Shown piece by piece: positions 8,396 to 25,864 of a stretch of DNA of 64,000 nt (position 1 is its first letter; every line of letters starts with the position of its first letter). Source of the stretch: an uncultured Armatimonadetes bacterium (GTDB lineage: Bacteria > Armatimonadota > Hebobacteria > Hebobacterales > Hebobacteraceae); contig OY970296.1 in assembly GCA_963716175.1 (NCBI GenBank), forward strand, positions 1,600,001 through 1,664,000, in the 5' to 3' direction. The notes under the pieces were generated by a model. The model saw only the letters and a list, made by a program, of their open reading frames with translations. It was not told where the DNA came from and ran no database searches. Both the position numbers and the translations under genes were made by a program.

Positions 8396-8507
8396 GGTCT
8401 CCTCTCACGGTAAGAGCTGAGCGACAGGTCAGAGTATATCACGAACGGAAGGGGCTTCGCCCATCACGCGGGTTGTCCCTCGCTGCGCTCGCGACAAACC
8501 CGCGCCA

Positions 8508-8919: not shown

Positions 8920-8939
8920 CGTGTTACCCTCTCTTGGCT

Positions 8940-9023
8940 CAAACGTAGGTTTGCTACCACGGCAAGATACCACACATAAGTTTGCTAGCAAGACGTCCGC
9001 GGAGAATTTCAAACGGCTGTTTG
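8940..9023. promoter_or_regulatory. Three putative LexA operators (CAAAC-N4-GTTTG)
   Basis: CAAACGTAGGTTTG 8940-8953, CACACATAAGTTTG 8971-8984, CAAACGGCTGTTTG 9010-9023 in the LysM/lexA divergent spacer. Confidence 0.75.
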
Positions 9024-9049
9024 CGAAGAAGGCGAAAACGTGGTATTAT
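9021..9049 (+). promoter_or_regulatory. sigma70-type promoter of lexA
   Basis: TTGCGA-17bp-TATTAT with extended TG; -35 overlaps third operator. Confidence 0.6.
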
Positions 9050-9083
9050 CCCCGCGCACCCATGTTGGCAGGAGGAGGAGAGC

Positions 9084-9698: not shown

Positions 9699-9723
9699 CG
9701 GGGGTGCGGGTGGTTGGTATGGT
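9695..9723 (+). promoter_or_regulatory. sigma70-type promoter of tRNA-Ser
   Basis: TTGACG-17bp-TATGGT about 40 nt before the tRNA. Confidence 0.55.
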
Positions 9724-9761
9724 CAGGGGCAGGTCGCGGAGCCGGCGTACCGCGCAGGCGC

Positions 9762-9849
9762 GGAGGGGTGTCCGAGCGGTTGATGGAGACGGTCTTGAAA
9801 ACCGTTGGGGCGAAAGCCCTCGTGGGTTCGAATCCCACCCCCTCCGCCA
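9762..9849 (+). tRNA. tRNA-Ser(TGA)
   Basis: GGAGGGG/CCCCTCC acceptor, ACGGT-CT-TGA-AA-ACCGT anticodon arm, long variable arm GGGC-GAAA-GCCC, GTTCGAATC, encoded CCA. Confidence 0.97.
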
Positions 9850-10092
9850 GATGGGTGAGATCATCGTGGACCCGTCTAAGATGCGCCTAGAGGCCTCTGG
9901 TGGGTTCGAACCCCACTCCCCCGGTCGAAAGTGACAGAGACGACAAACCCTCCGGCGTGGCCAAGCAGTGGCTATGTGCGTGCTCGTCCGTAGATAGGCT
10001 GATCCGCCCGGACGAGGGCCTCGAGGAACCCTGGGGAGGCCCTCGGGTGGCTCGCCACCAACACGCTGGCGAGCCCTTCGCCGCGCTGTGTA

Positions 10093-10212
10093 GCCGACGG
10101 CCCCGGCCACCTCCCGACTCCGGCTGCCCCCTCGGCTGGAGTCACTGTCCGGGGTTCGGCCGCGCGCCGGGACAGCAGCCGCGCCACGGGGCGATCACGG
10201 CCAGCCCCGTCC
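10093..10212 (+). repeat. Module-delimiting imperfect palindrome, copy 1
   Basis: Core CCGACTCCGGCT.CCC.CTCGGC..GGAGTC....CCGGGG; 3' extension CAGCCGCGCCA.GGG shared with copy 3. Confidence 0.7.
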
Positions 10213-10384
10213 ATCCTCGGTGCCTCTCAGCGCAGGGGTATGCACGAGGGGAGAGAATACCATGAGAGGGGATCTAGGAGCATTCTGGCAGCCAGGTGAT
10301 CACCTGGAGAGCACGGGCCCAGAACAGGCAGGACTGCCTATCCTACGCGGCGCCCCTCGGTCGCCGCCTCAAGGAGGACGACCG

Positions 10385-12754
10385 GTGCGACTGGCGATCA
10401 TGTCCCTTCTCCTGCTGACCGCGGCGATCGCGCCTTCGGTGGCTCACTGGACCGTCGATGCCTCCGTGCCTGACTGGTGCTGGCGCGGCGACCTGCACTG
10501 GGCCGTCCACTACGGGACCGTCACGCGGTCCGATGTCGACCTGATGCTAAAGGCCCGGCAGAACCTGGACCACGGTGCGAGCTACGACTCCGATGCCACG
10601 ACCGCCTATGCCGCCCAGAGCGGCCTGCACGACCTCATCTACATCTGTTCCCGCACCTTCGTGGTCGACGACTACCAGAAGCACCCTGAGCTAAAGCAGG
10701 GGGTAGTGCGGGCCTTCGATGGCAGCGAGGTCCTGGCCTACGGTAACCCCGTCCGGCGTTTCGGGTGTGTGAACTCCCCCGAGTGGAAGGCGTTTGTGCT
10801 CGGTCAGGTCGATGAGGTGCAGGCGCGGCGCCATCCGGCCGGCATCTTCTTCGACAACGAAGCCTGGTTCGTGCAGTGCCACTGTCCCGTGTGCCGCGCG
10901 AAGTTCCGCGAGTACTCGCGCCAGCACTACGGGGTCGAGATGGAACTGCCGGAGCGAGTTGAGGTGTCCACCCAGGTGGGGCGCGCAGCGCAAATGTTCT
11001 TACTCGATTCGCAGACGGCGTTCCACCAGGCGCTGCTCGGCTATTGCCATCGACAGAGGCCGCGCCTGCTGTGTGTGCCCAACACCTGCGGGCTGGACGC
11101 CTGGCCGATGCACGGGATCGAGGAGGGCGTCACCGATCTGCCTTTCTACGAGTCCTCCAGCCATCCCCCCTTCGAGGACAGCCTCTATGCCTACAAGCTC
11201 GCCCTAGCCGCCGGGCACGGCCGGAACGTAGGACGGTTGATGTACCTGCCCTCTACGGTGGCGGGTGAGCGGGGCAAGCGCGTCTGGGTCGAGACCTGGC
11301 ACGCATTCGAGAACCCGTCGTCACCACTGGCGAAGGAGTTCGCGCTGGGGATCGCGGAGAGCGCGGCGTGCGACGCCACCTATGTCGCGAACTACGACCT
11401 CAGCCCATCGACGCCGATCACCGACACGAAGGACCCGTTCAACGTCAATATCTACCAGACCATGAACCGCTACTACGGGTTCCTGGTGCGGAACCGCGAG
11501 CTCTACCTCAATGCTGATCAGGGAGCGCTGCTGGCGATCCTGCACTCGGTGCCAACGGACCTCTGGACGCACTCGTCCGACCGTTGGGCGAAGCTGGCGC
11601 AGAGTCTGAACCGCGCCGGGGTGCCCTACGAGGTGATCGTGGAACAGGACCTGAAGGCCAACCTGCTGGCGCGCTACCGGGCCGTCATCATCTCCGGCGT
11701 CCGCGCCATCTCGGAAGAGGGGGCGGCACAACTGGCCGCCTACGTCAGGGCTGGCGGGCGAGTGCTCTTCGGCGGGGAGTGCGGCCTGACCGACGAACGG
11801 GGAGAGGCGCATCCGAGCCGGGCGATCGAGGAGCTGCGCCGCAGTGGGGGCCGGGTAATCAACGTGGCCGAGGACCTCTCTGAGCTCGATGGCAGCCGGC
11901 TGCGGGAGCTGGTGACGCGCCTGATGGGGGAGCCGGAGATCAACGTTCGCAACCCGAGCGGGAAACTCTCGATCAACGTGCTCTCCGAACCCGGGCAAGG
12001 GCTGCGAACGGTACATCTGCTCAACTACGATTTCACCTACGACCGGCCGGCGTGGGTGATCTCCGATGACGACCAGTTCTCGGAGGCCCGCAGCTACCTG
12101 TCGGATAGGGCCTGGCGCATCCGCAAGGTGCTGGTGGTCCCGGACCCGGCAGCGCTGGAGCATCCGACGCTGGAGATCATCGGGTCAGCGGCTACGGAGA
12201 AGGCGCTGTTCCGGCTGGTAGTGACCCTGAACGCCACCGATGTCGCCTCCTTCTCGGGGGACGAAGTGCGCACGAACCTCTCCGTGCCCCTGACGGCCGA
12301 CCGCCTCGTCAAGGGCGAGAACGAGGTGGTCCTGCGGGTGGAGGGCCAGCCCAACGTGATGAGCGAGTGGTATCAGGTGATGATCGACAAGGACGCGAAG
12401 ACGGGGCGCTCGTACTTCAGCACGGATGCTGGGAAGACGTGGGCCCAAGACGATCTCTCGCGGGACCCCCAACCGCAGCAGGGCGAGTTCATGATCCGTC
12501 TGGTAGACCCGGACAAGCGACCGTCGCAGCTCGAGTGGGAGAACATGTGCCACGTGCACCCGGCACGGGGCGTCCAAGTGTTCGTGGCCGGCGCTCGGGT
12601 GCCGTGGGCGCTGGCTCTGTCACCCACGGCGGACCCCAGGCGGATCTCCGGTTCGCGGGTGTCGGGCGGGGCCGAGTTCATCGTGGACGTGGAGACATAC
12701 ACCGTGCTGGCACTGGCGGACGATCCGAAGGCGCTGCAGGTGTACGGGTACTAG
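10385..12754 (+). CDS. Secreted glycoside hydrolase-like protein (GH42-like barrel plus beta-galactosidase trimerisation-type domain)
   Basis: Signal peptide after GTG 10385 (AGGAGG RBS), GIFFDN, CHCPVC, L..AGVPYEVI, YVRAGGRVL, VHLLNY. Confidence 0.6.
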   Translation: MRLAIMSLLLLTAAIAPSVAHWTVDASVPDWCWRGDLHWAVHYGTVTRSDVDLMLKARQNLDHGASYDSDATTAYAAQSGLHDLIYICSRTFVVDDYQKHPELKQGVVRAFDGSEVLAYGNPVRRFGCVNSPEWKAFVLGQVDEVQARRHPAGIFFDNEAWFVQCHCPVCRAKFREYSRQHYGVEMELPERVEVSTQVGRAAQMFLLDSQTAFHQALLGYCHRQRPRLLCVPNTCGLDAWPMHGIEEGVTDLPFYESSSHPPFEDSLYAYKLALAAGHGRNVGRLMYLPSTVAGERGKRVWVETWHAFENPSSPLAKEFALGIAESAACDATYVANYDLSPSTPITDTKDPFNVNIYQTMNRYYGFLVRNRELYLNADQGALLAILHSVPTDLWTHSSDRWAKLAQSLNRAGVPYEVIVEQDLKANLLARYRAVIISGVRAISEEGAAQLAAYVRAGGRVLFGGECGLTDERGEAHPSRAIEELRRSGGRVINVAEDLSELDGSRLRELVTRLMGEPEINVRNPSGKLSINVLSEPGQGLRTVHLLNYDFTYDRPAWVISDDDQFSEARSYLSDRAWRIRKVLVVPDPAALEHPTLEIIGSAATEKALFRLVVTLNATDVASFSGDEVRTNLSVPLTADRLVKGENEVVLRVEGQPNVMSEWYQVMIDKDAKTGRSYFSTDAGKTWAQDDLSRDPQPQQGEFMIRLVDPDKRPSQLEWENMCHVHPARGVQVFVAGARVPWALALSPTADPRRISGSRVSGGAEFIVDVETYTVLALADDPKALQVYGY

Positions 12755-13006
12755 GCCCGGTCAGCAAGCCCCGGTTGCTGCGAAAGGGTCGGTCTGCCTG
12801 TGCTTCCGACTCTGGCGCAGGTCGCGTTGCTCCCGCCCGCCATGTGTTGACAACATAGCTTACCGACGCTGCATCACCCGCGGAAGAGCGGGGAACCTTC
12901 GGCGCGGCCCGACTCGCGCTACGGGCAGCGGTCAGTGCTTGAGCGAAGCGTGCTGCTCTGACGACGCGCCCAGATACGCGACCAACCGCCCCGGAGGTGA
13001 GGGCAG

Positions 13007-13036
13007 TTGGTCGCAGGCTTCACCCTGATCGAGCTG
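13007..13036 (+). pseudogene. Remnant of prepilin-type N-terminal cleavage/methylation gene
   Basis: GGAGGTG RBS, TTG, then AGFTLIEL; the hydrophobic helix that should follow is missing. Confidence 0.5.
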
Positions 13037-13447
13037 AGACGATGCTGTCCCCGCAGCACTCGTATCTTCTCACGACATGATGTGGGCGACGTGAAAGCCA
13101 CTGGAAACTTCCGTGTAGGGACCGCTCCAGTGGAGAAACCGCTGTGAGGCACGGCATGCCCAGCCAAGTCCCGCAGGGGGTCTGTCCGCGTCCGCGCCGG
13201 ATGAACATCCTGTGTCAGCAGAGACACGTCCTGCTGTGCCGCCCAAGAGAAGAGCCGGGGAGAGCCCACGTCCGCGGGCCCCGCCCTGGCTCCATGCGTA
13301 GGGGCCAACCCACACTGAAACCGCCCTGAGCCGTTCCGTTGGGAGCAGCTAGCGCTGGGGTGATGTGGCCTCTTGCCGGCATGAGACCGCGATCCGGGCG
13401 GTTCGCCGGCGGAATGGTCTCATAGGGCGTGCGCGTGCAGTGCGTTG

Positions 13448-13517
13448 CCGGGCGCGAGGAAGAGCCCCAGGCACCCCCGACTCCGGCTACCCGCTCGGCG
13501 CGGAGTCACGATCTTCT
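13448..13517 (+). repeat. Module-delimiting imperfect palindrome, copy 2
   Basis: GGCACCCCCGACTCCGGCTACCCGCTCGGCGCGGAGTC. Confidence 0.7.
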
Positions 13518-13791
13518 CAGGGCGAAGCGGCCGCTTCAGCCGGTCTCAGGGTCGCCCGACATGCGCAGGTGGTCCACGTGTACCGTTCACTGACAGGCGT
13601 ACCCAACAATGTGCTGGAACCGGCCCCCGGCTGTCGTCCTGGGCACATGAGAACCTGAGATGCGTCTCTGTGCCCCCTGGACCGCCTTACCGTCTCGCAC
13701 CTGGAGCCGGAGGCTGGCGGAGGTATGCATAGGCGAGCAGGCGAATTCCCTATCTTCCGCGATGCGCGTGCTGATCACCAGGAGCTACGCG

Positions 13792-14904
13792 ATGAGTGTG
13801 TTGGCGCCGATCCTAATCGCTTGTGTTTTCGGGATGGTGCTGCATTCCGCCGCCCAGGCCGACGACGAGCTGACATGGCATGACGCGACCAGCCTGCGAA
13901 TCGAAGGGAAGGCATGGCAGGACACTGAGAGCTTCTTCGACCGGCTCCCCGCACGTGCGCTGAGCCACGTGAACGGCGATCTCAAGGGACTGGCCAGACT
14001 CAGCGCTGGCATGGCAATCCGCTTCACCACTGACTCCGACACGCTCCGGGTGCGCTGGAGCCTGGGAGATCCAGTCTACGTCATGACCCATATGGCAGCT
14101 ACGGGCACCAGCGGCCTCGACCTGTACGTGAAGGGGGCCGACGGCCACTGGGCCTACGCCGGGACGGGGCGCCCGGAGGACAAGCGAGACAACGAGGCGA
14201 CGTTCTTCTCGAACCGGCCGAAGGCCGAGCGGACGTACCTGCTCTACCTGCCTCTCTTCAACAAACTGACTTCTCTCAGCATCGGAGTGACCGCCGGCTC
14301 CTCCTTGGAGACGGTTGGGAACGGCGCCGGCAAGCGCGTCGTGTTCTATGGCACGAGTATTGTCCACGGCGGTTGTGCCTCCCGGCCGGGGATGGCCTAT
14401 CCCGCAATCATCGGGCGTGCCCTCGACTGCGAGACTGTCAACCTCGGCTTCTCGGGCAGCGCCAGAATGGAGCCTGTGGTCTGCGATCTGCTGGCTGAGC
14501 TCAACCCGGATGTCTTCGTCATCGACGCGCTCCCCAACATGCACGAGGAGCCGATCACCGAGAGGACGCTGAACCTGGTCCGGACCATCCGCAAGAGCTG
14601 TCCGACCACGCCCATCGTGCTCGTCGGGAACATCACCTATCAGACCACCCGCGCCTTTGGGGGTGACGGCGGCGAGGTCCGCGAGATCAACGCGCGATTC
14701 CGAAAGGCCTACGACCAGCTCCTCGCCGAAGGCTGCGCCGGGCTCCTGTATGTTCCCGGGCGCAACCTGCTCGGGGCTGACGGTGAGGGGACGGTTGACG
14801 GCACTCACCCCACAGACTTGGGCTTCAGCAGGATGGCCGAGGTGATCGGTGCGGCAGTGGCAGACGCGCTCGCCCAGGCTGCCTCAGCCGAGGAGAAGCC
14901 ATGA
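13792..14904 (+). CDS. SGNH/GDSL hydrolase with N-terminal GxDLY-type domain
   Basis: Signal peptide, GLDLY, FYGTSIVHG, NLGFSG, DGTHP; AGGAG RBS before ATG 13792. Confidence 0.85.
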   Translation: MSVLAPILIACVFGMVLHSAAQADDELTWHDATSLRIEGKAWQDTESFFDRLPARALSHVNGDLKGLARLSAGMAIRFTTDSDTLRVRWSLGDPVYVMTHMAATGTSGLDLYVKGADGHWAYAGTGRPEDKRDNEATFFSNRPKAERTYLLYLPLFNKLTSLSIGVTAGSSLETVGNGAGKRVVFYGTSIVHGGCASRPGMAYPAIIGRALDCETVNLGFSGSARMEPVVCDLLAELNPDVFVIDALPNMHEEPITERTLNLVRTIRKSCPTTPIVLVGNITYQTTRAFGGDGGEVREINARFRKAYDQLLAEGCAGLLYVPGRNLLGADGEGTVDGTHPTDLGFSRMAEVIGAAVADALAQAASAEEKP

Positions 14905-15116
14905 ACAAGGTGTCGGTTACGCTGGAAGAGGATGCCCTGCTAGAGCTCCACGCCGTGCTTCTGGACGATGACCCGGTCGCGGCGCTGGAGTTCCTGAAGA
15001 GGCACATCGCCCCCAAGATCCCGCGCAAGGGAAGCGCGGCCTGTGATTCCACTCGGCTCAATCCGTTCATTCTGCGCGCGAGGCCTGGGCAACGCGGCGG
15101 CGTAGAGCCCGGATGA
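14901..15116 (+). CDS. Small hypothetical protein
   Basis: ATGA overlap with upstream gene, GAGGAG RBS, protein-like amphipathic N-terminus. Confidence 0.55.
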   Translation: MNKVSVTLEEDALLELHAVLLDDDPVAALEFLKRHIAPKIPRKGSAACDSTRLNPFILRARPGQRGGVEPG

Positions 15117-15325
15117 TGTCCTGCGCGCCCCGGCCGCAGCAAGAGGATCGCAGACAGATCCCGGCGCTGGCATCGCCAGGGGCCCCGATTGTCCAGTGTG
15201 TGGGTGTCAAGTTAGCATGAAAGCATGATGCACCCCGGCGGTGCCGCTGATAGGATCAGCGATCAGGCACCTCGTCCCGGCTGCGAGACTCAGCTCGAGC
15301 GGGAGCACCGGGTGACTGGCGCAAC

Positions 15326-15470
15326 TTGTCGGTGTCAACCGCCCGTGAAGCCGACCCCGTGCACCTCCGACTCCGGCTAGCCCCTCAACTCGGGGTCATC
15401 AATCGGAGTTCTGTCGCGTGTGGGCACATCAGCCGCGCCATGGGAGCGATTGCGGGCAGGCCCGCTCAGT
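15326..15470 (+). repeat. Module-delimiting imperfect palindrome, copy 3
   Basis: TTGTCGGTGTCAACCGCCCGTGAAGCCG..GCACCTCCGACTCCGGCTA..; aligns over about 100 nt with copy 5. Confidence 0.75.
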
Positions 15471-15606
15471 CGAATCCCCCCTGGGCAGCCCTCCAGTCCC
15501 GGCAGCCCGCTAGGATAGGGCTATCAGCGAGTGCGGGGAACACAGCGAGAGAGCTTCCGGGAACCCCCTCGAAGCCAGATGGGGTGGTCGACAGGACTCC
15601 TGGGTC

Positions 15607-15658
15607 TTGACAGTCGGCCGGTTCCTGCGTATGCTACTCTCGCCCAAACATATGTTTG
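15607..15658 (+). promoter_or_regulatory. sigma70 promoter followed by putative LexA operator
   Basis: TTGACA-17bp-TATGCT (15607-15635) and CAAACATATGTTTG (15645-15658) just before the AGGAGG RBS. Confidence 0.7.
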
Positions 15659-15672
15659 CCAGGAGGGGAACC

Positions 15673-17793
15673 ATGGCTTCTGTATGTCAGGTGGCCGTGG
15701 GGGCGGTGCTGGGGGTGGGCCTGCTGGCGCTGTCGGCGCCGATAGGTGCCGAAGGAAGCGGAGGGGCATCTGGGGCGCGGCCTGATTACGGCAAGCTCGT
15801 ACTGCGCGGCAAGGGCATGGCCCAGGACTCGTTCTCGCTCGCCCTTCAGGCGGCCGCCCGCCTCCTGGGACGAGACGCTGACTACGAGACCATCGCAGCT
15901 ATGACCACCAGCGTCTTCTCGCCCGCCATCACCCCGGGTGAGGACTGCACGTCCTGGTGGCACGTGGACGCGCGTTACCTCGCTACGGCCGCGGACCTCC
16001 AGCCGGTCTCCGAGCTGATCGGGGTGCGCCTGAGGCGCCTCGATGTCCCTGTGTTCAAGGGCGATGGGAAGGACGAGGAGGAGGCGCGCCGCCACCGTCG
16101 CGACGTGGCGAAGCTCCTCGCCCAGACCATGGATGCCGGTGCCGTCATCGTTGTCAGTGGCAGATGGGAACCGACAGGAGGGCCGCATGGCTTCGTGCCC
16201 TGGGGATGGGCCGGCATCGTCACAGAGGCGAGGCCCGACGGCACGATTCTCGGCGCCTGCCTGAACGGTGAGAAGGACAACCCGCTGCGCTGGTTTGCCC
16301 CGATGTGGGCGGTCTCGGCCGGTGAGGTGACGGCCACGCCTGCCCAAGCCAGCCGGGCGACGCTGCGTCAGGCCGTCTCGCGGATCCGCGGCACAGGCCG
16401 CTTCCAGCGCGGCGAGTCCAGCGTCTACGGCCTTGATGCGATGGATCTGTGGATCAAACAGATGGAGCAGGTGCCAGGGTTCTGTGCCCAGTGCCAGGAG
16501 AGGGGCGGGCGCGGTTGGACTGACGCCGTCGACAATGCCGTGGCGATGCGCGAGCGCGCGGCGGCCGCTGCCTCCTACCTGCGCCGCGTTGGGTCCACCT
16601 TCTCGCCCGCTGGGCGCCCCTACCTGGAGTCCGCCGCGCAGCACTACGATCGCATCCGGCAGTTGCTCAACCCGGCGCTAACCGGCGAGGGTGGCGAGAA
16701 GTTCGAGCAGTTCGTCGGGGATCTTGCCAAGCAGAAGGCGCACGCCCAGACCGTGCTGCGGCCGGCGCGCTCCGAGCTGTCCGCGGCCGCCGACGACATG
16801 GACAAGGCGCTCGCCGTTCCGCTTCCGGAGGCGCGACTCCTCCGTGATGTGCCGGCCGGCAAGGGCGATGGCAACGAATTCGTCCGCGGCCTGGAGGTCA
16901 TCCTGGATCACGCGGGCACGCCCGTGGACTACGACACGCTGATGGGCGATCTGGGACTTGCCTTCATCCTGCAGGCCAGCGATCAGGTCCCAAGGTACAA
17001 CGGCGCGCTGGACGTCGGCTGGTGGCCTCTCGACCCGGCCTGCATACCTAGCTATCTCGACTTCGTGAGCCGCACTGCTGGGCGCTGCATCGACTTCCTC
17101 CACCTCGAGACCGTCTCCGAAGCAGAGCTACCACAGGCCTTCCGAGAGAGAGCGCTGCCGCGTGCGGAAGCCACCCTCAACAACGGCTCCCCCTTCCTGG
17201 CGATAGACTGCTGCTGGAAGGTCGTCACCGGCTGCGACGGAGGCGAGCCCCCGCTGCTGGGGTTCCTGGCCAGCGCGGGGAGCGCAGAACCGGCCCGCTT
17301 CCCGTCGTACCCATGGGCCTTCGCCTTCCTCGATGACACTGTGCCGAAGGTGGACCGCCGCACCGCGGATCGAGAGGCGCTGCGGCACGCGGTCGCACTC
17401 AGCCGCGACGAGGTCGCGATGCCGTGGGGATTCGTCACCGGGCAGAAGGCCTACGCACTGTGGGCGCAGACCCTGCGGGACACTGAGCACCTGGGTGAGG
17501 CGCGCTGGCACTGTAACATGGTGAGGCATCTCACCCTCAACCGCACCAGCGCCACCGCCTACCTCCGCGGCATGGTGGAGCGACAACCAGCCGCGGCCCC
17601 TCGTCTGTTGGCCGCCGCCGCGTGCTACGAGTGTACTCTAGCACGGCTCAAGGAGGCCGACCTCAGTGAAGCCGCTCTCATGTCCAGCGACGGACGCAAG
17701 AAGCTGGCCGCGCTGGTGGAAGGGATCGCCCGGATCGAGGCGGATGCCGTCGGTGAGCTGGAGGCGGCGGTCGCCGCGATGCCGGCCCGCTGA
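15673..17793 (+). CDS. Secreted hypothetical protein with an internally duplicated domain
   Basis: Signal peptide; two halves share DY.T, WW, G..A..LW and A..YL...L..AA..Y motifs; AGGAGG RBS. Confidence 0.7.
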   Translation: MASVCQVAVGAVLGVGLLALSAPIGAEGSGGASGARPDYGKLVLRGKGMAQDSFSLALQAAARLLGRDADYETIAAMTTSVFSPAITPGEDCTSWWHVDARYLATAADLQPVSELIGVRLRRLDVPVFKGDGKDEEEARRHRRDVAKLLAQTMDAGAVIVVSGRWEPTGGPHGFVPWGWAGIVTEARPDGTILGACLNGEKDNPLRWFAPMWAVSAGEVTATPAQASRATLRQAVSRIRGTGRFQRGESSVYGLDAMDLWIKQMEQVPGFCAQCQERGGRGWTDAVDNAVAMRERAAAAASYLRRVGSTFSPAGRPYLESAAQHYDRIRQLLNPALTGEGGEKFEQFVGDLAKQKAHAQTVLRPARSELSAAADDMDKALAVPLPEARLLRDVPAGKGDGNEFVRGLEVILDHAGTPVDYDTLMGDLGLAFILQASDQVPRYNGALDVGWWPLDPACIPSYLDFVSRTAGRCIDFLHLETVSEAELPQAFRERALPRAEATLNNGSPFLAIDCCWKVVTGCDGGEPPLLGFLASAGSAEPARFPSYPWAFAFLDDTVPKVDRRTADREALRHAVALSRDEVAMPWGFVTGQKAYALWAQTLRDTEHLGEARWHCNMVRHLTLNRTSATAYLRGMVERQPAAAPRLLAAAACYECTLARLKEADLSEAALMSSDGRKKLAALVEGIARIEADAVGELEAAVAAMPAR

Positions 17794-17818
17794 TCATTCC
17801 TCGGAGAGGGAGGGAAAC

Positions 17819-18877
17819 ATGCCATCATGCGCTAGCCCGGAGGCCCTCACACGCGAACTGACGCAGCACGGCCATTCCCTGGGCGTGGACCTCGTCGGCT
17901 GCACTTCGTCCGCGCCCTTCGTCGTCGGCGAGGCGGCGCGAGAGATACTGCCGGAGGCGATCCTTCCCGGCGCACGCTCCATCGTCGTTGCCGCCTGCGC
18001 AACTAGCGGGGTCGATCGCTACCAGCCCTCCCGACCCGGCGCTCCTCGCGGCCGGCTGGGCCCGTGGACACGCGCCTCCGTGCCCGCCTACGACCATACG
18101 CTCGGCGTCATCACCGAGTTCCTCACCGCGCGCGGCTATCGCACGGCCGCCGGCCACGAGCTTCCACTCAAGGCGACCGCGGTCCGCGCGGGGATTGCGT
18201 ACTACGGCAAGAACAGCATCGTCCACGCCGAGGGTTTCGGCTCGTACCTCGAACTGGCGGCCGCACTGACAGATGCCGAGTTGATCTGCACTGATCGCCC
18301 GGTTCAGTCCTCCGACTGCCCGGACGACTGCCGCGCGTGCATGGAGGCGTGCCCGACGGGCGCGCTCGCGGAGCCGTTCCGGCTCACTCGCGACAAGTGC
18401 ATCTGCCATTACCTCTGGGGCGCGCCGATTCCGCGCGAGCATAGACAGGCTGTTGGCGATCTCATCTTCCGGTGCGACGCGTGCCAGCAAGCCTGCCCAC
18501 GCAATCACAAGCTGTGCGGGGGTCGCGAGCTCGCCTACCGTCCTCAGGAAGGAGATGACTCGCCGGTGCTGCTGCCCTTGCTGCTCGGAGACGAGACCTA
18601 CTACCGAAGCGCCATTCCGGAGTTCGTGCAGCAGGCCGGGCTCGACACCGTACGCCGCAACGCGGCCATCGCAGCTGGGAACATAGGCGATGTGGCGACC
18701 CTGCCTGCCCTGCTCACGTGCCTGAGCTCCGCTCACGATCTCACCCGCATCGCCGCCGCCTGGGCCCTCGGCCGCTTCAGCGGCACAGAAGTCGCCCGCG
18801 CCCTTGCCGAGCGGCTCGCCGTAGAGGAGAACGCCGAAGTCCGCGACGAGATTGCCTGTGCCCTCCACACAGACTGA
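17819..18877 (+). CDS. Epoxyqueuosine reductase QueG-like Fe-S protein with C-terminal HEAT repeats
   Basis: AVRAGIAYYGKNS, C..DC.AC...CPTGAL, CDACQQACP, RRNAAIAAGN, AAWALG. Confidence 0.7.
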   Translation: MPSCASPEALTRELTQHGHSLGVDLVGCTSSAPFVVGEAAREILPEAILPGARSIVVAACATSGVDRYQPSRPGAPRGRLGPWTRASVPAYDHTLGVITEFLTARGYRTAAGHELPLKATAVRAGIAYYGKNSIVHAEGFGSYLELAAALTDAELICTDRPVQSSDCPDDCRACMEACPTGALAEPFRLTRDKCICHYLWGAPIPREHRQAVGDLIFRCDACQQACPRNHKLCGGRELAYRPQEGDDSPVLLPLLLGDETYYRSAIPEFVQQAGLDTVRRNAAIAAGNIGDVATLPALLTCLSSAHDLTRIAAAWALGRFSGTEVARALAERLAVEENAEVRDEIACALHTD

Positions 18878-18939
18878 GGCGCCCTCCCGCGCCCGCAGAG
18901 CCAGCTAGCGCAGGACTGATCCTCGCCCGCAGGTGGCGG

Positions 18940-19013
18940 GCCGACGGCCTCTGGCGTCGCCGACTCCGGCTACCCACTCGGTTCGGGTCGCTGGTCGGGG
19001 TCTCGTCGCGCGT
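18940..19013 (+). repeat. Module-delimiting imperfect palindrome, copy 4
   Basis: CCGACTCCGGCTACCCACTCGGTTCGGGTCGCTGGTCGGGGTCTCGTCGCG. Confidence 0.65.
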
Positions 19014-19362
19014 ACGGCAGGCGTGCTCGTCGAAGGGGAACGGCGCCCGAAGGCGCCGCCTTACCGGTCCCAGGTAGTGCGAGGGGTGAGCTGAGGCAAG
19101 CCCGGGACGCTCCCAGGACGGTCCTACGGGTCCTCGGCACCTACAGAGGATCCCGCCAGAACAAGGCTAGGGTGGTGCAACAGCGAAGTAATCACGACAC
19201 ACGGTCCTACGGGCGCCCAACACCCCCAGGAGGTCCCACGGAGGCAGGACTCAACTCTGGGACTTTCACCCCTTCTCGTGACGCCCGCCATGGCGTACAG
19301 TGCTCAGCGACGGTAGCCGATGAGCCCGGCCCAACACTTTCGGCCGGAGTGGAGGTGTCGCC

Positions 19363-20334
19363 ATGAAGGCCAGTCTAGCGCCTTGCCGTTTCCCTTTCGG
19401 CGTGGTTCGCTCTGCGCTGACGCTGGCTGTAGTTCTGCCGGCCGCGCTCTGCCTCGGAGGCTGCGGCCCTGTGCCAGAGACATCTTGGTCTCCGACAGAT
19501 CAGGAGATTGCCTACCTCGACAACGGCGCCCTCCGCATCCTGGACATGGCCACGAAACAGTCGCGGGCGCTCGACACCGGACCCGGCGCGGTCTGCTCTC
19601 CTTCCTGGTCTCCCGATGGCAAGACGATCGCCTTCTACTCGGCGGTGTTCGGCAAGGAGCCGAGCGTATCGTTGCGGGCCATTGATCTGTCCTCCGGCCA
19701 GGTGCGCACTCTTGCCTCGGACGTCTGGCCCTTACCCACTGAGGCAAGCGGCGGCACGACGCACCCGGGCCAGTCGCCCGAGGAGGCCCTCGAGGAGGCT
19801 CAGCGCGAGGAACTCTCCGGGCTGATGCTTTTCGGCACTATCCCTTGGAGCCCGGACAGCGCGCGCCTCGCCTGCTCGGCGGGGCCTATCAGCCCCGGCT
19901 CGCTGCTCGTCGTTGACGCGGCCACCGCCGCCGCGACTCCTATCACCCAGCACACGAAAGTGCCGGGCATGATGATGATGGCGGCCTGGTCCCCTGACGG
20001 CAAGCGAATTGCCTAGCTGCTGTGCCCGGGTGATCCGGCTGAGGCTCAGTCCGGGTCAGACGAGCCGCCGGGCAGCAACAGCTTCTGGGTGTACGACCTA
20101 ACAACCGGCGCCGCTGATCGGTTATACGATGTGCCGACCGATAGCTCGGGCGATACCTATGTGATCGGTCCGCGACTCGAATGGTCGGCCGACTCCACCC
20201 GGATCGGTTTCATCATGGAGGACGTTCACAATGAGGGGCGGGCGATCGCCTACACGATCGCGGCGGAGCCGGGGGCGACGGTGCGAGAGGAGATGCAGGG
20301 CATCACTCCCATTGTCCGTGTCAACCGGCCGTGA
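19363..20334 (+). pseudogene. TolB-like (PD40 repeat) lipoprotein, nonsense-interrupted and 3'-truncated
   Basis: LGGC lipobox-like motif, repeated WSPDG..IA motifs; in-frame TAG at 20014-20016 after which the frame continues (WSADSTRIGF) and runs into repeat copy 5. Confidence 0.7.
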
Positions 20335-20410
20335 AGCCGGCCTCGGGCACCCCCGACTCGGGCTGCCCTCTCGGCTTGGAGTCGCTGTCCGGGGGTTCGT
20401 CGCGTATGGG
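20312..20410 (+). repeat. Module-delimiting imperfect palindrome, copy 5
   Basis: TTGTCCGTGTCAACCGGCCGTGAAGCCG..GCACCCCCGACTCGGGCTG..TCGGCTTGGAGTC..CCGGGGG..GTCGCGTATGGG. Confidence 0.75.
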
Positions 20411-20513
20411 ATCTGGGGGAGGGAGGGGCTGAGCCCTGCGACACCTGACCAGACTGGGTGCCACACCCGGCCTGGCTACGTAGAGTCCCGAATGCCGTCT
20501 GCATCCTCCTGGC

Positions 20514-20541
20514 TTGACAGCTTCGACAGGCCGAGTATCCT
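20514..20541 (+). promoter_or_regulatory. sigma70-type promoter, possibly for a leaderless mRNA
   Basis: TTGACA-16bp-TATCCT ending 7 nt before ATG 20549. Confidence 0.45.
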
Positions 20542-20548
20542 CAGGCCG

Positions 20549-21745
20549 ATGACCGTCACCCGGCGCCACACGAAGCTGCGTGCCCTTGGCGCTGCCCTGG
20601 CCGTTTTGGCTGGCCTGAGCTTGGCGCCAGGTGCGACCAGTGTGTCCGGTCCCAGAGAGGATGCCTACGCCATGAGTAGTGCACCGAAGATGCGCTTCGA
20701 GCATCGCATCATCGATCCCGAGCCGCCACGCGATCCGCATATCAAGGCGGCCGGCGACATCGATGGCGACGGTAACCCCGATGTCGTCGTCGCCAGTAGT
20801 GACGGCGGCCCTCTGGTCTGGTACCGGAACCCGGACTGGAGCAGGCACGTGGTTCACCCTTCCGGGAAATGGAGCTGTTATGCCCGGGTTGTGGACATGG
20901 ACGGGGATGGCGATGCCGACATCCTGATCTCGGAGTGGTACACCCACAACCGATTGGAGTGGTACGAGAACCCCCGGCCGGACGGTGACCCCACCAAGGA
21001 CCCTTGGCACCAGCACATCATCGGGAGCCCGCGGGCTCACGATATCTGCAGCGGCGACATCGACGGCGATGGACAGATGGAGATCGCGACCCGCGCCCAA
21101 GGTGAGGACGGACGCGAGATCGTCCTCTGGAAGCGCGCCGGCGGCGGCTCGTGGTCGAGGCGCAGCCTCCCGTGTCCCGCAGGCGAAGGGCTGAGCATCG
21201 GCAGCATCGCCGGGGACGGGCGGCTGGATATCGTGATCGGCGGCCGCTGGTACGAAGCGCCGGAGGACATCATGGCCGGCCACTGGCAGGAGCATGTCTT
21301 CGCCGACTGGCCTGCGGACGCGGTAGTGGCGGTGGCCGATGTGGACAGGGAGGGCCGGGCGGACATCGTGCTCACCCGCTCCGAGGGCGCTCACCGTCTC
21401 TCGTGGTTTGGTGCGCCACCCGACCCAAAGCGCGGCCAATGGTCGGAGCACGTGGTGGACGATTCCGTGGACTTCGCTCACAGCCTGGTAGTGTGCGACA
21501 TTGACGGCGACGGTCAGCTCGACATCGTCACCGCCGAGATGCACCAGTCGCCGCGCAAGCGTGTCATGGTCTACCTGGGCGGTCGGAGGGGGACCGAATG
21601 GACACGGGAGGTCATCGCCGAGACGGGTTCGCATAACGTTTGTGTTGTCCGTCTGGGGGATACCGGAAGGATCGGCATCGTCGGGGCAAACTGGAGCGGC
21701 GGGTACCAGCCGCTTGAGCTGTGGGAACAGATAGCTGGTGGATAG
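20549..21745 (+). CDS. FG-GAP/VCBS repeat protein
   Basis: Signal peptide; repeated DIDGDG..D and WY.NP motifs; alternative start at 20672. Confidence 0.85.
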   Translation: MTVTRRHTKLRALGAALAVLAGLSLAPGATSVSGPREDAYAMSSAPKMRFEHRIIDPEPPRDPHIKAAGDIDGDGNPDVVVASSDGGPLVWYRNPDWSRHVVHPSGKWSCYARVVDMDGDGDADILISEWYTHNRLEWYENPRPDGDPTKDPWHQHIIGSPRAHDICSGDIDGDGQMEIATRAQGEDGREIVLWKRAGGGSWSRRSLPCPAGEGLSIGSIAGDGRLDIVIGGRWYEAPEDIMAGHWQEHVFADWPADAVVAVADVDREGRADIVLTRSEGAHRLSWFGAPPDPKRGQWSEHVVDDSVDFAHSLVVCDIDGDGQLDIVTAEMHQSPRKRVMVYLGGRRGTEWTREVIAETGSHNVCVVRLGDTGRIGIVGANWSGGYQPLELWEQIAGG

Positions 21746-21788
21746 GGCGGCCTCGGTTCCCCCCAACTGGGGTATAGCAAGGCGCGGC

Positions 21789-22931
21789 ATGCGATCGGCG
21801 GCAGTTGTGCTGCTGGCGCTGTGCGCGGCGGCAGCGCCCGGAGGAGGTTATGCGGTGGCTGGAGGTAAGCTCGCGTTCGAGCATCAGGTGGTGGACGCCG
21901 ACCCGCCCAGTGGGACCGGATGCTGCCTCGACGTTTGCGCATTGGGTGATCTCGACGGCGACGGCCGCACCGATATCGTGGTGGGCTCTCAGGAGTCGAT
22001 CGGGCTGGCCTGGTACCACAACCCGCACTGGAAGCGCTACCTCATCGGTCCGGGCGAGTTCACCACCGATGGTGAGGTCGCCGACATCGACGGGGACGGC
22101 AAGGCCGAGGTCATCGCGAGCTGCATGCAGCGCGATCAGATCGAGTGGTATGAGCGAGTCGGTGATCCGTTCCGCAGCGAGGGCTGGAAGCGTCATCGCA
22201 TCGGCGGCGGGTGGGCGCACGACCTGGCCGTCGGCGACATCAACGGCGACGGCCGCCTCGACGTGATCGCCTTCTCGAAATACGTCACCCCGCCGCACCT
22301 GGTGTGGTACGAGGCGCCGCCCGATCCGCGGAGCGAGTGGATCCGCCACCAGATCGACCAGCCCGCGGGCGAGGGGCTGGACGTGAGCGACCTCAATGGT
22401 GACGGCCATCTCGAGATTGTGGCAGGGCGGTACTGGTACCAGAATGTGGATGGTCGTGGCCTCAAGTGGGAGAAGCGCGAGCTAACGTCGGACTGGACCC
22501 ACGATTGCCGCGTCGTCATCGCCGACATGAATGGCGATAGGAGGCCCGACATCGTGCTGAGCTACTCCGAGGGCAAGGGCCGCCTCTCCTGGTTCGAGAA
22601 CCCGACCTGGCGCGAGCACCGCATCGATGCGGGGCCGCTGGAGGGGGCGCACAGCTTGGGGGTGGCCGACTTCGATGGAGACGGCAGGCTGGACGTGATG
22701 GCCGGGGAGATGCATAGCAGCAGCACGCGGCGCGTCCTGGTGTACCGGAACCTATCGCGCGGCGACAGGTGGCAGCGAATGGTGCTCGCGACCACCGGCA
22801 CTCACAACGCGCGGGTCGGCCGTCTGGCTCCTGGCGCGCTACCGGCCATCGTGGGGAAGAACTACGACGGTTCGAAGCAGGTCGAGATTTGGCAGGCGGT
22901 CACCGGGCCGGCTGGGGAGGTGCGGCGGTAA
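21789..22931 (+). CDS. FG-GAP/VCBS repeat protein (paralog of upstream gene)
   Basis: Signal peptide; DLDGDG, DINGDG, DFDGDG repeats; shares GEGL, AHSL, EMH, G.HN motifs with neighbour. Confidence 0.85.
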   Translation: MRSAAVVLLALCAAAAPGGGYAVAGGKLAFEHQVVDADPPSGTGCCLDVCALGDLDGDGRTDIVVGSQESIGLAWYHNPHWKRYLIGPGEFTTDGEVADIDGDGKAEVIASCMQRDQIEWYERVGDPFRSEGWKRHRIGGGWAHDLAVGDINGDGRLDVIAFSKYVTPPHLVWYEAPPDPRSEWIRHQIDQPAGEGLDVSDLNGDGHLEIVAGRYWYQNVDGRGLKWEKRELTSDWTHDCRVVIADMNGDRRPDIVLSYSEGKGRLSWFENPTWREHRIDAGPLEGAHSLGVADFDGDGRLDVMAGEMHSSSTRRVLVYRNLSRGDRWQRMVLATTGTHNARVGRLAPGALPAIVGKNYDGSKQVEIWQAVTGPAGEVRR

Positions 22932-22987
22932 TGCTCGCCGGCGTATGCGCGCGGACGAGCCACAGGCAGCGACGGGAGGAGCCAGTG

Positions 22988-24373
22988 ATGGTTATCGGAC
23001 CGATGGGATGGGGTGTAGCAGCCTGCCTGTTGGTGCTGCTCTGTGCCGGCGCCGCCACCGCGGGGCCCGCCGGGCTGCCACGGCTGAAGGTGAGTGAGAA
23101 CGGCCGCTTCCTGGTGACGGAGGAGGGAAAGCCCTTCTTCTGGCTCGGGGACACCGCCTGGCTGCTGTTCGCGCGGCTGAGCAAGGAGGAAGCCTGGCAC
23201 TACCTGAAGGCCCGTGCTGCACAGGGCTTCACGGTCATCCAGGCCATGACTGTGCCTTGGGATGCGCGGCACGTGCCGAACGCGGCCGGTGAGCTGGCCT
23301 TCCTCGACGGCGATCCCGCCAAGCCCAACGAGCGGTACTTCGCGCACGTGGACGCTGTGGTGGAGATGGCGGCTCGACTCGGCCTCTACATGGGCCTGCT
23401 GCCGACCTGGGGGGACGCCTGGAACCCGTGGGATGGAGGCACGGAGCTGCTCAGCCCGGAGAGCGCCGAGGTCTACGGGGAGTTCCTGGGCCGGCGCTAC
23501 CGGGACAGGCCGGTGATCTGGATCCTGGGCGGTGACCGGAACCCGGAGAACGAGCGCCACCGCGCCACCGTGCGGGCGCTGGCGAGAGGGCTGCGCCGGG
23601 GCGATGGCGGGCGTCACCTGATGACCTTCCACCCGAGCGGCTGGAGCAGTTCGTCGCGCTGGTTCCATGGGGATGACTGGCTGGCCTCGAATATGATGCA
23701 GAGCGGCCACTCCACGCGCAACGCGCGGAACTACGAGCTGATCGCGGCAGACTACGCGCGCACGCCCGCGAAGCCGTGTCTGGACGGGGAAGCGGACTAT
23801 GAGGATCATCCGGTAGACTGGAAGCCGGAGAACGGCTACTTCGACGACTATGATGTCCGGAAGACCGCCTACTGGGCGGTGTTTGCAGGTGCCCACGGGC
23901 ACACGTATGGCTGCAACGATGTCTGGCAGTTCTACAGGACGGGTGGCCAACCGGAGACCAACGCGCGCACGCCATGGCGGGAAGCGCTCCTGCTCCCAGG
24001 CGCGCGCCAGATGCATCACCTGCGCGCGCTGATGGAGTCGCGGCCGTTCCTCACGCGCGTCCCGGACCAGAGTCTGATTGTGGGGGCCGCCGGGGATGGG
24101 GCGCGCCATGTGCACGCCACCCGCGACGCGAGCGGCTCCTACGCGATGCTCTACGTGCCGACGGCTGGCCAGACGGTGACGGTGGACAGCAGCGAGCTGT
24201 CCGGGAAGCGGCTGAAGGCCTGGTGGTATGACCCGCGTACGGGGAAGGCCACCGCGCTCAAGGACGACTTCCTCGTCGGCGGGAAGCTGGAGTTCACCAC
24301 CCCGGCCGAGGGGCCGGACTGGGTGCTCGTGCTCGACGACGCGGCGAAGAGGTACCCGAAGCCCGGAAGCTGA
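22988..24373 (+). CDS. DUF4038/GH140 apiosidase-like glycoside hydrolase
   Basis: GKPFFWLGDTAW, GFTVIQ, LPTWG, IWILGGD, LMTFHP, QSGH, DGEADYE, GHTYG, C-terminal WYDPRTG..DWVLVL. Confidence 0.85.
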   Translation: MVIGPMGWGVAACLLVLLCAGAATAGPAGLPRLKVSENGRFLVTEEGKPFFWLGDTAWLLFARLSKEEAWHYLKARAAQGFTVIQAMTVPWDARHVPNAAGELAFLDGDPAKPNERYFAHVDAVVEMAARLGLYMGLLPTWGDAWNPWDGGTELLSPESAEVYGEFLGRRYRDRPVIWILGGDRNPENERHRATVRALARGLRRGDGGRHLMTFHPSGWSSSSRWFHGDDWLASNMMQSGHSTRNARNYELIAADYARTPAKPCLDGEADYEDHPVDWKPENGYFDDYDVRKTAYWAVFAGAHGHTYGCNDVWQFYRTGGQPETNARTPWREALLLPGARQMHHLRALMESRPFLTRVPDQSLIVGAAGDGARHVHATRDASGSYAMLYVPTAGQTVTVDSSELSGKRLKAWWYDPRTGKATALKDDFLVGGKLEFTTPAEGPDWVLVLDDAAKRYPKPGS

Positions 24374-24485
24374 TGAGTGCCGTCTGAGGTCCCAGCGCCA
24401 CCGGCTGGGGCATGCCCCAGCAACCGCTGACATAGGCGCCGACGTCTCGCAGGCCCCGGCCAAAGTCCGCCGCGCGACTCAGGGA

Positions 24486-24572
24486 GGCGGGCTGGACGGC
24501 GGCCCCATGCCCCCCCGACTCCGGCTACCGCTTCGGCTTGGAGTCAGTGGCCGGGGTGGCGTCGGGTGTGGG
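24486..24572 (+). repeat. Module-delimiting imperfect palindrome, copy 6
   Basis: CCCCGACTCCGGCTACCGCTTCGGCTTGGAGTCAGTGGCCGGGGTGGCGTCGGGTGTGGG. Confidence 0.7.
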
Positions 24573-24836
24573 AAGGGAGACCGGCTGCCGGCTCTGACTG
24601 CGACTGCATCCCTGGCCGGATTGCTCTGGAATCAGTGGCCAGCTTCGAGCGGAATCCGCAGATATGCCCAGCTGTGAACAGGAAGCGCGAAACGGTACTC
24701 ATGGGAGCAAGGATAGCACCGACTCAGCCGGGAAGGAGACCGCCCGGAAGTGCCCCGGATAGGGTTTCTGGGGAGGGCAAGGGGGTGCCGAAGCGATACC
24801 GAACCGACCCTCTATTGCTCAGGGAGGAGGTAGGAC

Positions 24837-25508
24837 ATGAAGCGACTCATTGCCGTGCTCATTGTGGTGGCGGCGATGGCCGTGCCCACCGCCGTGGTCG
24901 GCGGGGCGACGGCGCCGGCCGCCGGTCCGCAGGAGGTCACGCTTCCCGCGCCGGAGACCAAGGGAGGGATGTCGCTGAACGAAGCTCTGTCGCGCCGGCG
25001 TTCGGTACGCGGCTTCGACGCGAAGACCCTCGATCAGCAGCAGCTGGGGCAGTTGCTGTGGGCGACCCAGGGCATCACCGACCCGGCCACCGGGCACCGG
25101 ACGTCGCCCTCCGCGATGGCGATGTATCCGCTCACAGTGTACGTCTGCACGGCCGACGGCGTGTTCACCTACGAGCCGAAGGGCCACAAGCTGGTGCGCG
25201 TCTCCACCGAAGATCGGCGCGCCGATGTCACCCAGCCCCCGCGGGGAGGACAGCCGGCCCCGGTGAGCTTCGTGTTCACCGGTGACCCGAGCAAGTTCGG
25301 GTCGCGCCTCCCGGATCGGGCCGCCGCGTTCGTCTATCTGGAGGTCGGGCACGCGGCCGAGAACTTGGCCCTGGAGGCGACCGCGCTGGGGCTCGCAACC
25401 GTGACCCAAGGCGGCATCGACGCGGCGAAGGTGTCGAAGGCGCTCAACCTGCCGCAGGGCACGCTGGTAGTCTACACCATGCCCGTGGGCTATCCCGTCG
25501 CGCGGTAG
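24837..25508 (+). CDS. SagB/ThcOx-type nitroreductase family protein with signal peptide
   Basis: RRSVR, LLWATQG, RTSPSA..YP, EVGHAAENL.L.A.ALGL. Confidence 0.85.
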   Translation: MKRLIAVLIVVAAMAVPTAVVGGATAPAAGPQEVTLPAPETKGGMSLNEALSRRRSVRGFDAKTLDQQQLGQLLWATQGITDPATGHRTSPSAMAMYPLTVYVCTADGVFTYEPKGHKLVRVSTEDRRADVTQPPRGGQPAPVSFVFTGDPSKFGSRLPDRAAAFVYLEVGHAAENLALEATALGLATVTQGGIDAAKVSKALNLPQGTLVVYTMPVGYPVAR

Positions 25509-25684
25509 CAGGCACGCCCCCGGGACAAGGCGGCGCGGCAACCATCGGTGGCGGCAGGTTCTGCCTCGTGTCGTCCGGATTGCACCGCGAGCGCATGCTC
25601 GAGGATAGCCTATTCGCGACCTCCCGCTGCCATCTCGCGTGTTGCACCGAGCTGCCCATGCTGGTATCCATGACCCGTTCGCCC

Positions 25685-25825
25685 TTGACAACCCGCTCGG
25701 GTGGGGCTACGATCCGTCTGGCTGACGAGAGACAAAACAAGAGAGGTCGCAGGCTTACGCGCATCAGCCCTTGACGCGCCTGCTTCGCGCCACCCGAAGC
25801 ATCGGGTGGCGCGAGGCGGGCGCGT
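25685..25825 (+). promoter_or_regulatory. sigma70 promoter plus structured leader
   Basis: TTGACA-17bp-TACGAT (25685-25713); 24-bp hairpin 25774-25825. Confidence 0.55.
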
Positions 25826-25864
25826 TGTGTCCGGGGTGGGCCCTACTCGGGAGGGGATGAGGAG

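Follow-up and report, generated by a model that had tools for sequence, protein, structure and literature searches.

The repeat analyzed here was noticed in a stretch of 64,000 nucleotides (the window) that spans bases 1,600,001–1,664,000 of the single 4.56-Mb contig, with 66% G+C, of an uncultured Armatimonadetes bacterium (genome G000). In the window, six co-oriented copies of a palindromic element, the core, follow a tRNA-Ser gene and are separated by short gene modules. According to the present analysis, the cores are best explained as a new intergenic repeat family resembling repetitive extragenic palindromes (REPs) and miniature inverted-repeat transposable elements (MITEs), which acts as a target of insertion sequences (ISs) and as a recombination hot spot; the probability of this reading is estimated at roughly 0.55. 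Copy number, distribution, orientation statistics, the lack of RNA covariation, IS insertions at fixed positions, fusions to IS ends and a mosaic gene order are direct observations. The preliminary description, made from the window, had instead proposed a gene-capture system with the repeat as its recombination site. Window coordinates below count from the window start; those of G000, G011 and G005 refer to whole genomes or contigs.

The family was searched for with two models: an nhmmer hidden Markov model derived from 54 exact-core copies, and a covariance model (CM) based on 57 full copies. In G000, 105 copies were detected by nhmmer and 98 by the CM, in seven regions and on both strands:

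0.72–0.80 Mb and 1.03–1.08 Mb, mostly minus strand, two repeat regions
1.61 Mb, plus strand, the window array
1.71–1.73 Mb, minus strand, repeat region
1.90–2.10 Mb, repeat region with 55 copies, 52 of them on the plus strand
2.26–2.30 Mb and 2.79–2.82 Mb, mostly plus strand, two repeat regions

Together these regions cover about 0.5 Mb, or about a tenth of the chromosome, and the rest of it is free of copies. The window array is thus a small share of the family (6 of approximately 100 copies, which lie genome-wide and on both strands), contrary to the uniqueness of the locus that the preliminary description implied. Scatter over the genome in both orientations had been named in advance as a finding that would speak against gene capture; it was found, with seven regions and both strands occupied. 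Nearly all copies in G000 (102 of 105) are intergenic, and in the largest region a core is present in 49 of 130 gaps.

Outside G000, the CM detected copies in two genomes of a sister genus, G005 (74 copies) and G011 (31 copies). Among 15 genomes of the same family, four more contain single matches and eight contain none (completeness of these eight, 55–96%). Among 121 genomes sampled across the phylum, only G000 and G005 carry copies. In metagenome contigs of the Joint Genome Institute (JGI), where at least 119 stretches were matched and 80 loci were analyzed, nhmmer finds at least 140 cores in these 80 loci; some loci represent the same organism sampled twice, so the metagenome counts given here are not independent. 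The repeat family is confined to one lineage of Armatimonadota. A plasmid collection yielded no core match. Two contigs of Solirubrobacterales metagenome-assembled genomes (MAGs; L033 and L034) contain an exact 23-mer of the core motif and have no CM match; they were taken as chance or partial matches. Contigs of G005 often end at core repeats. A literature search found no relevant account of intergenic repeats, attC sites or miniature inverted repeats in Armatimonadetes/Armatimonadota.

The element is an imperfect palindrome of approximately 75 nt, and longer forms of 180–280 nt exist. The nested inverted repeats noted earlier are present, with 90% of cells paired across the 57 copies. The consensus fold is weak (−3.0 kcal/mol), and covariation is no better than chance, the observed score being reached by 342 of 500 shuffles for the 57 copies. 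In addition, a “type A” subfamily alters one arm of the outer stem without a compensating change. In the Rfam search, proposed earlier as a negative control, the tRNA alone matched above the gathering score and nothing else was plausible at E values up to 10. The earlier statement that integron boxes are lacking is confirmed by the 57-copy consensus, which has no R''/R' boxes at its ends (RYYYAAC ... GTTRRRY, as the motif was given in the preliminary description). As negatives for other kinds of element, G000 contains neither a reverse transcriptase nor TnpB. Coding by the reverse strand of the core was considered and rejected: a peptide motif recurs, but the frames are broken and vary from 2 to 240 aa in length, and the motif stems from an IS transposase whose N-terminus is joined to the core.

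The cores are co-oriented with each other and not with neighboring genes. In the 37 metagenome loci with several cores, adjacent cores share a strand in 58 of 60 pairs, and in 35 loci all cores lie on a single strand (median spacing 1.3 kb, range 232–5371 nt). In G000, the gene has the strand of the core in 68 of 105 cases downstream and in 61 of 105 upstream; for flanking genes of the metagenome loci, the counts of same and opposite strand are 71 and 47 downstream and 58 and 59 upstream. Minus-strand genes confirmed by Pfam (aminotransferase, enolase-superfamily protein, RGL11 lyase and DUF6785) are found between plus-strand cores. In G000, the cumulative GC skew is lowest at 1.14 Mb and highest at 3.58 Mb, with dnaA located at 1.34 Mb. 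With the origin set at 1.25 Mb from the skew minimum and dnaA, 95 of 105 cores follow the inferred direction of replication, compared with 57% of genes genome-wide and 64% of genes in the repeat regions. In G011, the lone minus-strand core (1.58 Mb) lies in negative-skew DNA with a minus-strand gene majority, and plus-strand cores at 1.80–1.99 Mb lie in positive-skew DNA with a plus-strand gene majority; since dnaA of this genome is at 2.65 Mb, the flip of core strand was matched there to the skew flip and not to a settled origin.

Two kinds of association with ISs were found. An IS481-like element of 1.36 kb, encoding an rve transposase of 378 aa, has inserted independently into four cores; the position in the core and the relative orientation are identical in all four, and every insertion has its own 5-bp duplication. 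Its copies in G000 are 99% identical:

1725478–1726832, IS481-like element
1904459–1905814, IS481-like element
1934760–1936120, IS481-like element
1973938–1975305, IS481-like element

One copy bears a related end at another position of the core, symmetric to the first, and in three copies this symmetric position is occupied by an element of approximately 800 bp with the same terminus, a non-autonomous relative. The second association is a fusion. The commonest right flank of the cores (X) is the first ~175 nt of another rve-family IS, comprising the terminal repeat, the ribosome site and about 25 codons; it is broken at one constant point and directed away from the core. An intact 1.4-kb copy of this IS is located at 2.862 Mb in G000. 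According to a regular-expression search, the 175-nt IS end is present in 24 of 105 cores and the left type A end, whose TGTC terminus is IS-like, also in 24; eight cores carry both. The two ends differ in that the left one resembles an IS only in its TGTC-type terminus, while the right one is the IS left terminus itself. The preliminary description had named a match to a known IS end or Rfam family as evidence against its proposal: the IS-end fusion was found in these 24 copies, and an Rfam match was not.

Two-ended units in G000 measure 260–356 nt (six of the eight, 260–267 nt). Measured to the extended right terminus, 13 two-ended units from G000 and the metagenome loci are 258–363 nt long, 11 of them 258–280 nt, and their outer ends are sharp. 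The eight joint occurrences of left and right flank types compare with ~5.5 expected, and this near-independent assortment suggests that exchange takes place within the core. A second right flank of approximately 100 nt adjoins a core in 13 of its 17 genomic occurrences.

The window array itself was reexamined using a crude codon-usage gene caller, whose calls were checked against Pfam. It has the following structure:

9762–9849, plus strand, tRNA-Ser (TGA), left neighbor of the first core (ARAGORN; Rfam tRNA)
10090–10165, plus strand, core copy 1 (nhmmer, 52.1 bits; CM extent 10080–10177)
up to ~10260, plus strand, X flank of core copy 1, a shortened left-end remnant of the rve-family IS
10385–12754, plus strand, module 1, GH42-like protein (weak Pfam match to the GH42 middle domain)
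13463–13513, plus strand, core copy 2, truncated (model positions 15–65; nhmmer, 41.3 bits)
13762–14904, plus strand, module 2, SGNH/GDSL esterase (Pfam)
15343–15424, plus strand, core copy 3, with type A left end and X-type right flank (nhmmer)
15607–15635, promoter-like site downstream of core copy 3
15691–18877, plus strand, module 3, a 700–728 aa protein without a Pfam family, then a HEAT and 4Fe-4S protein
18939–19014, plus strand, core copy 4, with a GC hairpin flank directly after it (nhmmer)
19402–20334, plus strand, module 4, PD40 beta-propeller gene, apparently split (19402–20016 and 20089–20334)
20330–20410, plus strand, core copy 5, with type A left end (nhmmer)
20514–20541, promoter-like site downstream of core copy 5
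20549–24373, plus strand, module 5, FG-GAP, FG-GAP and apiosidase (GH140) (Pfam)
24492–24571, plus strand, core copy 6 (nhmmer and CM)
24837–25508, plus strand, module 6, nitroreductase (Pfam); no core follows it in the window

Most of what the preliminary description reported on this locus was reproduced. The 12-nt motif is exact at the six positions it gave (10114, 13477, 15367, 18960, 20353 and 24515), all on the plus strand, and the six copies align over approximately 75 nt at a spacing of 1.4–4.2 kb. With up to one mismatch the motif has nine matches in the window, a number reached by none of 100 shuffles; the one-mismatch matches at 676, 12909 and 60923 are outside the family, and nhmmer reports exactly six copies, in agreement with the claim that the 64 kb hold no others. 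The tRNA-Ser beside the array, the plus strand of all genes between 10.1 and 25.5 kb (gene caller and Pfam agree) and the absence of an integrase (zero PF00589 matches in the window) were likewise found as described. Pfam supports the protein names proposed earlier (weakly for GH42), and promoter-like sites past cores 3 and 5 correspond to the promoters placed downstream of the repeat in two modules. By contrast, the repeat does not occur once per intergenic gap, as had been stated, since six cores face about 11 gaps in this part of the window. Every window core is located 139–388 nt upstream of a co-oriented gene.

Several observations concern the DNA beside the array and its tRNA gene. A tRNA 3'-end-like fragment (T-arm look-alike) at window positions 9890–9925, 40 nt past tRNA-Ser, may be the remnant of an old integration. 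Just past the array, at 25704–25834, there is an element of approximately 110–130 nt, with places 75–83% identical to it in G001, G005, G010 and G014; it is a different small repeat or RNA and belongs to no Rfam family. Of the other repeat regions, only that at 1.03–1.08 Mb begins near a tRNA-Ser gene, and the region at 1.71–1.73 Mb begins at a tRNA-Thr gene beside a different integrase. G000 also has five tRNA-Phe(GAA) genes (747667, 789636, 981231, 2099497 and 2285183), four of which are in or near repeat regions; these four have ~60 nt of upstream sequence in common, with a partial tRNA-like stretch, which suggests tRNA-Phe-linked island modules.

The preliminary description had suggested testing whether module order and content vary with breakpoints in the repeat. 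Relatives do vary in this way, and the breaks are located at the repeat or inside it. In G011, a nitroreductase 86% identical to that of window module 6 is located at 1.917 Mb and flanked by two cores, the two FG-GAP genes and the apiosidase are at 1.934–1.938 Mb in a longer operon without flanking cores, and the SGNH gene is at 2.788 Mb. The core and first gene of window module 3 match G011 1939855–1942347 at 76%, where the 728-aa gene again stands behind a core; core-to-gene linkage is retained in G011 for two modules. LexA and tRNA-Ser of G011 are at 3.206 Mb with no array behind them, and the left and right flanks of the window array are not adjacent in G011 or G001. The GH42-like gene (window 10316–12859) has 93% DNA identity with positions 1352–3896 of the 6.7-kb G005 contig C242, on which no core is present. 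Other shared (backbone) genes have 72–79% identity across the genera, and this difference suggests a recent transfer of a single-gene segment. As a separate observation, the block of module 5 (20549–24373) is a paralogous partial copy of an operon that is intact in G011 (1931624–1939312), and the same FG-GAP/apiosidase operon is kept in shortened form in G000 at 778876–779649 (~0.78 Mb).

Within G000, at least nine duplicated segments connect repeat regions, and their ends are in or near cores, at varying core positions. Of the 71 inter-core genes in the metagenome loci, 37 are without a homologue in G000, and just nine of the other 34 map to G000 repeat regions. Adjacent genes that are separated by a core in these loci map to distant places in G000, with homology limited to the coding sequence or ending in the core. 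One unit, composed of half a core, an IS end and a gene for a 181-aa protein, is 95% identical in two different contexts. Modules of relatives are not limited to accessory enzymes and include a greA-type gene beside glnA, flavodoxin, URO-D and helicases. Contigs of four public sequencing runs, compared with window positions 8001–27000, contain several joints that go back or skip, e.g., from 25530 to 13323 in two runs. These joints were not accepted as circles or rearranged arrays: their sides are 21–56 nt long and lie in multi-copy flank pieces, and the contigs have a few hundred bases, so they show neither.

In its behavior the repeat is like a selfish element of the REP/MITE type: it resides between transcription units, keeps one orientation relative to the replication fork and serves as a preferred landing site for at least one IS. 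Copies would have spread as mobile units, the 258–280-nt form with IS-like terminal repeats probably being moved by a related rve-family transposase. Dispersed copies would then supply the homology at which neighboring gene blocks are exchanged, duplicated and reordered, and the shuffling of modules would follow as a side effect when copies recombine, with no dedicated recombinase behind it.

A number of results weigh against this explanation. The 13 two-ended units have no recognizable target-site duplication (the copies are 70–80% alike, and decay is possible), and in two comparisons with related genomes a clean empty counterpart of a filled site did not emerge. The intact rve-family IS at 2.862 Mb contains no core, and conservation is higher in the core than in the supposed terminal repeats, the reverse of what is usual for a MITE. 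No transposase or Y1 enzyme is linked to cores: the five Y1_Tnp (PF01797) loci of G000, at 0.96, 1.20, 3.13, 3.63 and 4.05 Mb, are at least 70 kb from any core (the nearest ~70 kb). When folded as DNA, the written strand was more stable than its complement in just 17 of 57 copies, a result that does not support a simple lagging-strand hairpin model. Ordinary DDE-type MITEs and REP pairs lack co-orientation, and neither the near-perfect co-orientation of the cores (58 of 60 pairs) nor their confinement to ~0.5 Mb is accounted for. Gene-sized units also turn up in differing contexts, broken at cores, as they would in a cassette system too. Co-orientation, confinement to about a tenth of the chromosome and recurring gene-sized units are three misfits with a textbook REP or MITE, and because of them a site-specific cassette system stays alive as a minority reading.

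Two other explanations ascribe a function in the host to the core. In the first, the core would be a cis-regulatory RNA, transcribed as a leader, terminator or insulator for a regulon of secreted enzymes. In its favor are the position of each window core upstream of a co-oriented gene and the two linkages retained in G011, and it is considered extremely improbable: a leader or terminator is excluded by the lack of co-orientation with genes (68 of 105 downstream genes on the core strand in G000, 71 against 47 in the metagenome loci, and Pfam-confirmed minus-strand genes between plus-strand cores), while the fold is weak, covariation and Rfam matches are lacking, and promoter-like sites lie downstream of two cores. 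A polar DNA site that serves the host, binding a chromosomal protein of the nucleoid, replication, segregation or repair in a manner dependent on fork orientation and kept by selection and not mobility, is a less remote but still improbable alternative. It would account for the 95 of 105 copies co-directional with inferred replication against 57% of genes, the strand flip that coincides with the skew flip in G011, the intergenic location and the conservation of primary sequence without covariation. Against it, the repeat is limited to seven regions of ~0.5 Mb in all, with the rest of the chromosome free of it, and is undetected in eight of 15 family genomes (55–96% complete) and 119 of 121 sampled phylum genomes, and its copies are often truncated, disrupted by ISs or fused to IS ends.

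The strongest competitor of the REP/MITE-like reading, though itself unlikely, is a non-integron cassette system, in which the core is the site of a recombinase acting in trans (the multi-copy Xer-like enzyme or another tyrosine recombinase) and modules of 0.3–10 kb are inserted, excised and reordered into co-oriented arrays. Three genomes have such arrays, as do 35 of the 37 multi-core metagenome loci at a median spacing of 1.3 kb, and core orientation is independent of gene strand. The inter-core genes without a G000 homologue (37 of 71), the scattering in G000 of modules that are neighbors in relatives, with homology that stops at the coding sequence or in the core, and the module gene 93% identical across genera with a 72–79% backbone also agree with it. 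IS elements are known to target attC sites as well, which parallels the IS insertions in cores. Yet G000 has no integron integrase (28 weak matches to TIGR02249, the best scoring 90 bits where the cut-off is 265), homology does not always break at the same position of the core, the modules include a greA-type gene that neighbors glnA, and the GH42-like gene is shared at 93% without a core on its G005 contig. The many IS-end fusions with sharp outer ends point to transposition, and the flip of core strand across the origin follows replication, which gene capture itself does not predict. No enzyme, no fixed crossover point and no circular form were found, the reads being short contigs of four runs that are unable to reveal circles. 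A more specific version has marginally lower probability: the cores would be attachment sites of an undescribed integrase-in-trans cassette system of Armatimonadota that captures gene-sized modules, including copies of chromosomal genes, with up to ~55 sites over 200 kb, a polarity set relative to replication and IS-end fusions as secondary debris. In sedentary integrons, array polarity is likewise set relative to replication.

The Xer-like recombinase (~300 aa) was examined as a candidate for the array integrase. In G000 it has two intact copies and two fragments, the latter inside arrays:

808848–809822, plus strand, intact Xer-like recombinase
2242368–2243381, minus strand, intact Xer-like recombinase
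2027195–2027470, Xer-like fragment inside an array
2102651–2103166, Xer-like fragment inside an array

The intact copies are 7–15 kb upstream of arrays and divergent from them, an arrangement that, together with the fragments, favors the cassette system. The Xer-like copies are 82–89% identical, and ordinary Xer homologues are 41–45% identical. Against a role in the arrays, six of seven intact copies in G011 have no core within ~10 kb, and the enzyme is also encoded by two genomes without cores. The recombinase travels with its own conserved segment 5–9 kb away, with variable cargo between them, which suggests that it is part of a separate, unclassified family of integrative elements. It was rejected as the array integrase, being without linkage to cores. 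The preliminary description had suggested looking for a core next to a recombinase. The Xer-like fragments in arrays and the different integrase at the tRNA-Thr region were found, and no recombinase could be linked to the arrays. Adjacent pairs of strong tyrosine-recombinase matches, reminiscent of multi-recombinase elements, were additionally observed in G000 at 2841.6–2843.1, 2959.8–2961.2 and 3032.2–3033.7 kb. As for the gene-capture proposal as a whole, its co-oriented arrays, shuffled modules and lack of attC or Rfam identity stand, while the genome-wide spread, the IS-end fusions, the absence of an integrase and the strand that follows the fork do not fit; a role of the repeat as a gene-capture recombination site is possible.

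If the REP/MITE-like reading is correct, the cores represent a well-documented repeat family in a barely studied phylum, which marks gene-order breaks and IS landing sites and is useful for annotation, MAG assembly and the understanding of genome plasticity. Their near-perfect co-orientation, which ordinary MITE or REP biology leaves unexplained, offers a concrete and testable case of repeat arrays shaped by the direction of replication or by site-specific recombination. Were the cassette system correct, integrons would be joined by a second kind of gene-capture platform.

Among known systems, elements of the IS200/IS605 type have been described as preferring the lagging strand, at least in the accounts of PMC3333891 and PMC6006769. 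The cores are comparable in bearing a hairpin and in an orientation that follows the replication fork (95 of 105), as far as those accounts permit the comparison. They differ in that there is no TnpB, Y1 genes are unlinked to cores, neither strand folds clearly better, and the IS relatives found are of the DDE (rve) type. Clusters of attC sites lacking integron integrases (CALINs) consist, in the definition given by Cury et al. 2016 (PMC4889954), of sites clustered on one strand and less than 4 kb apart. With regard to that definition, the cores are similar: they are palindromic, share a strand within a cluster, mostly lie within 4 kb of each other and separate short modules that vary between relatives, with no adjacent integrase. 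Unlike CALINs, they occur in a genome without IntI, their consensus has no R-box-like ends, IS-end fusions are present, and modules reach 10 kb and contain genes in either orientation with promoter-like sites of their own. Cassettes of integrons are mostly single promoterless genes co-oriented with the sites.

Compared with IS-derived MITEs, the core family has no observed target-site duplication and is strongly co-oriented. Its conserved part, the core, lies inside the unit and has no counterpart in the intact IS, and in most copies an IS-like end is missing on one or both sides. The 258–280-nt subfamily nevertheless partly resembles such MITEs: it has sharp boundaries, terminal repeats that look IS-like (the left one only in its TGTC-type terminus), and ~175 nt from the start of an rve-family IS, of which G000 also contains an intact copy. 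The GTAG head of REPs is absent from the core family, the core is ~75 nt long in contrast to 20–40 nt for REPs, no REP-associated tyrosine transposase (RAYT/Y1) is located near cores, and the family, instead of being dispersed along the chromosome, is confined to a few regions. Bacterial interspersed mosaic elements (BIMEs) contain REP copies in alternating orientations according to the description in PMC2817692, and REPs are presented in PMC1525189 as targets of site- and orientation-specific IS insertion. Relative to the inverted pairs of BIMEs and of REP doublets forming hairpins (REPINs), as that description has them, only two of 60 adjacent core pairs are on opposite strands. What the cores have in common with the REP, BIME and REPIN families is that they are high-copy, GC-rich, imperfect palindromes that are intergenic, lineage-specific and targets of IS insertion.

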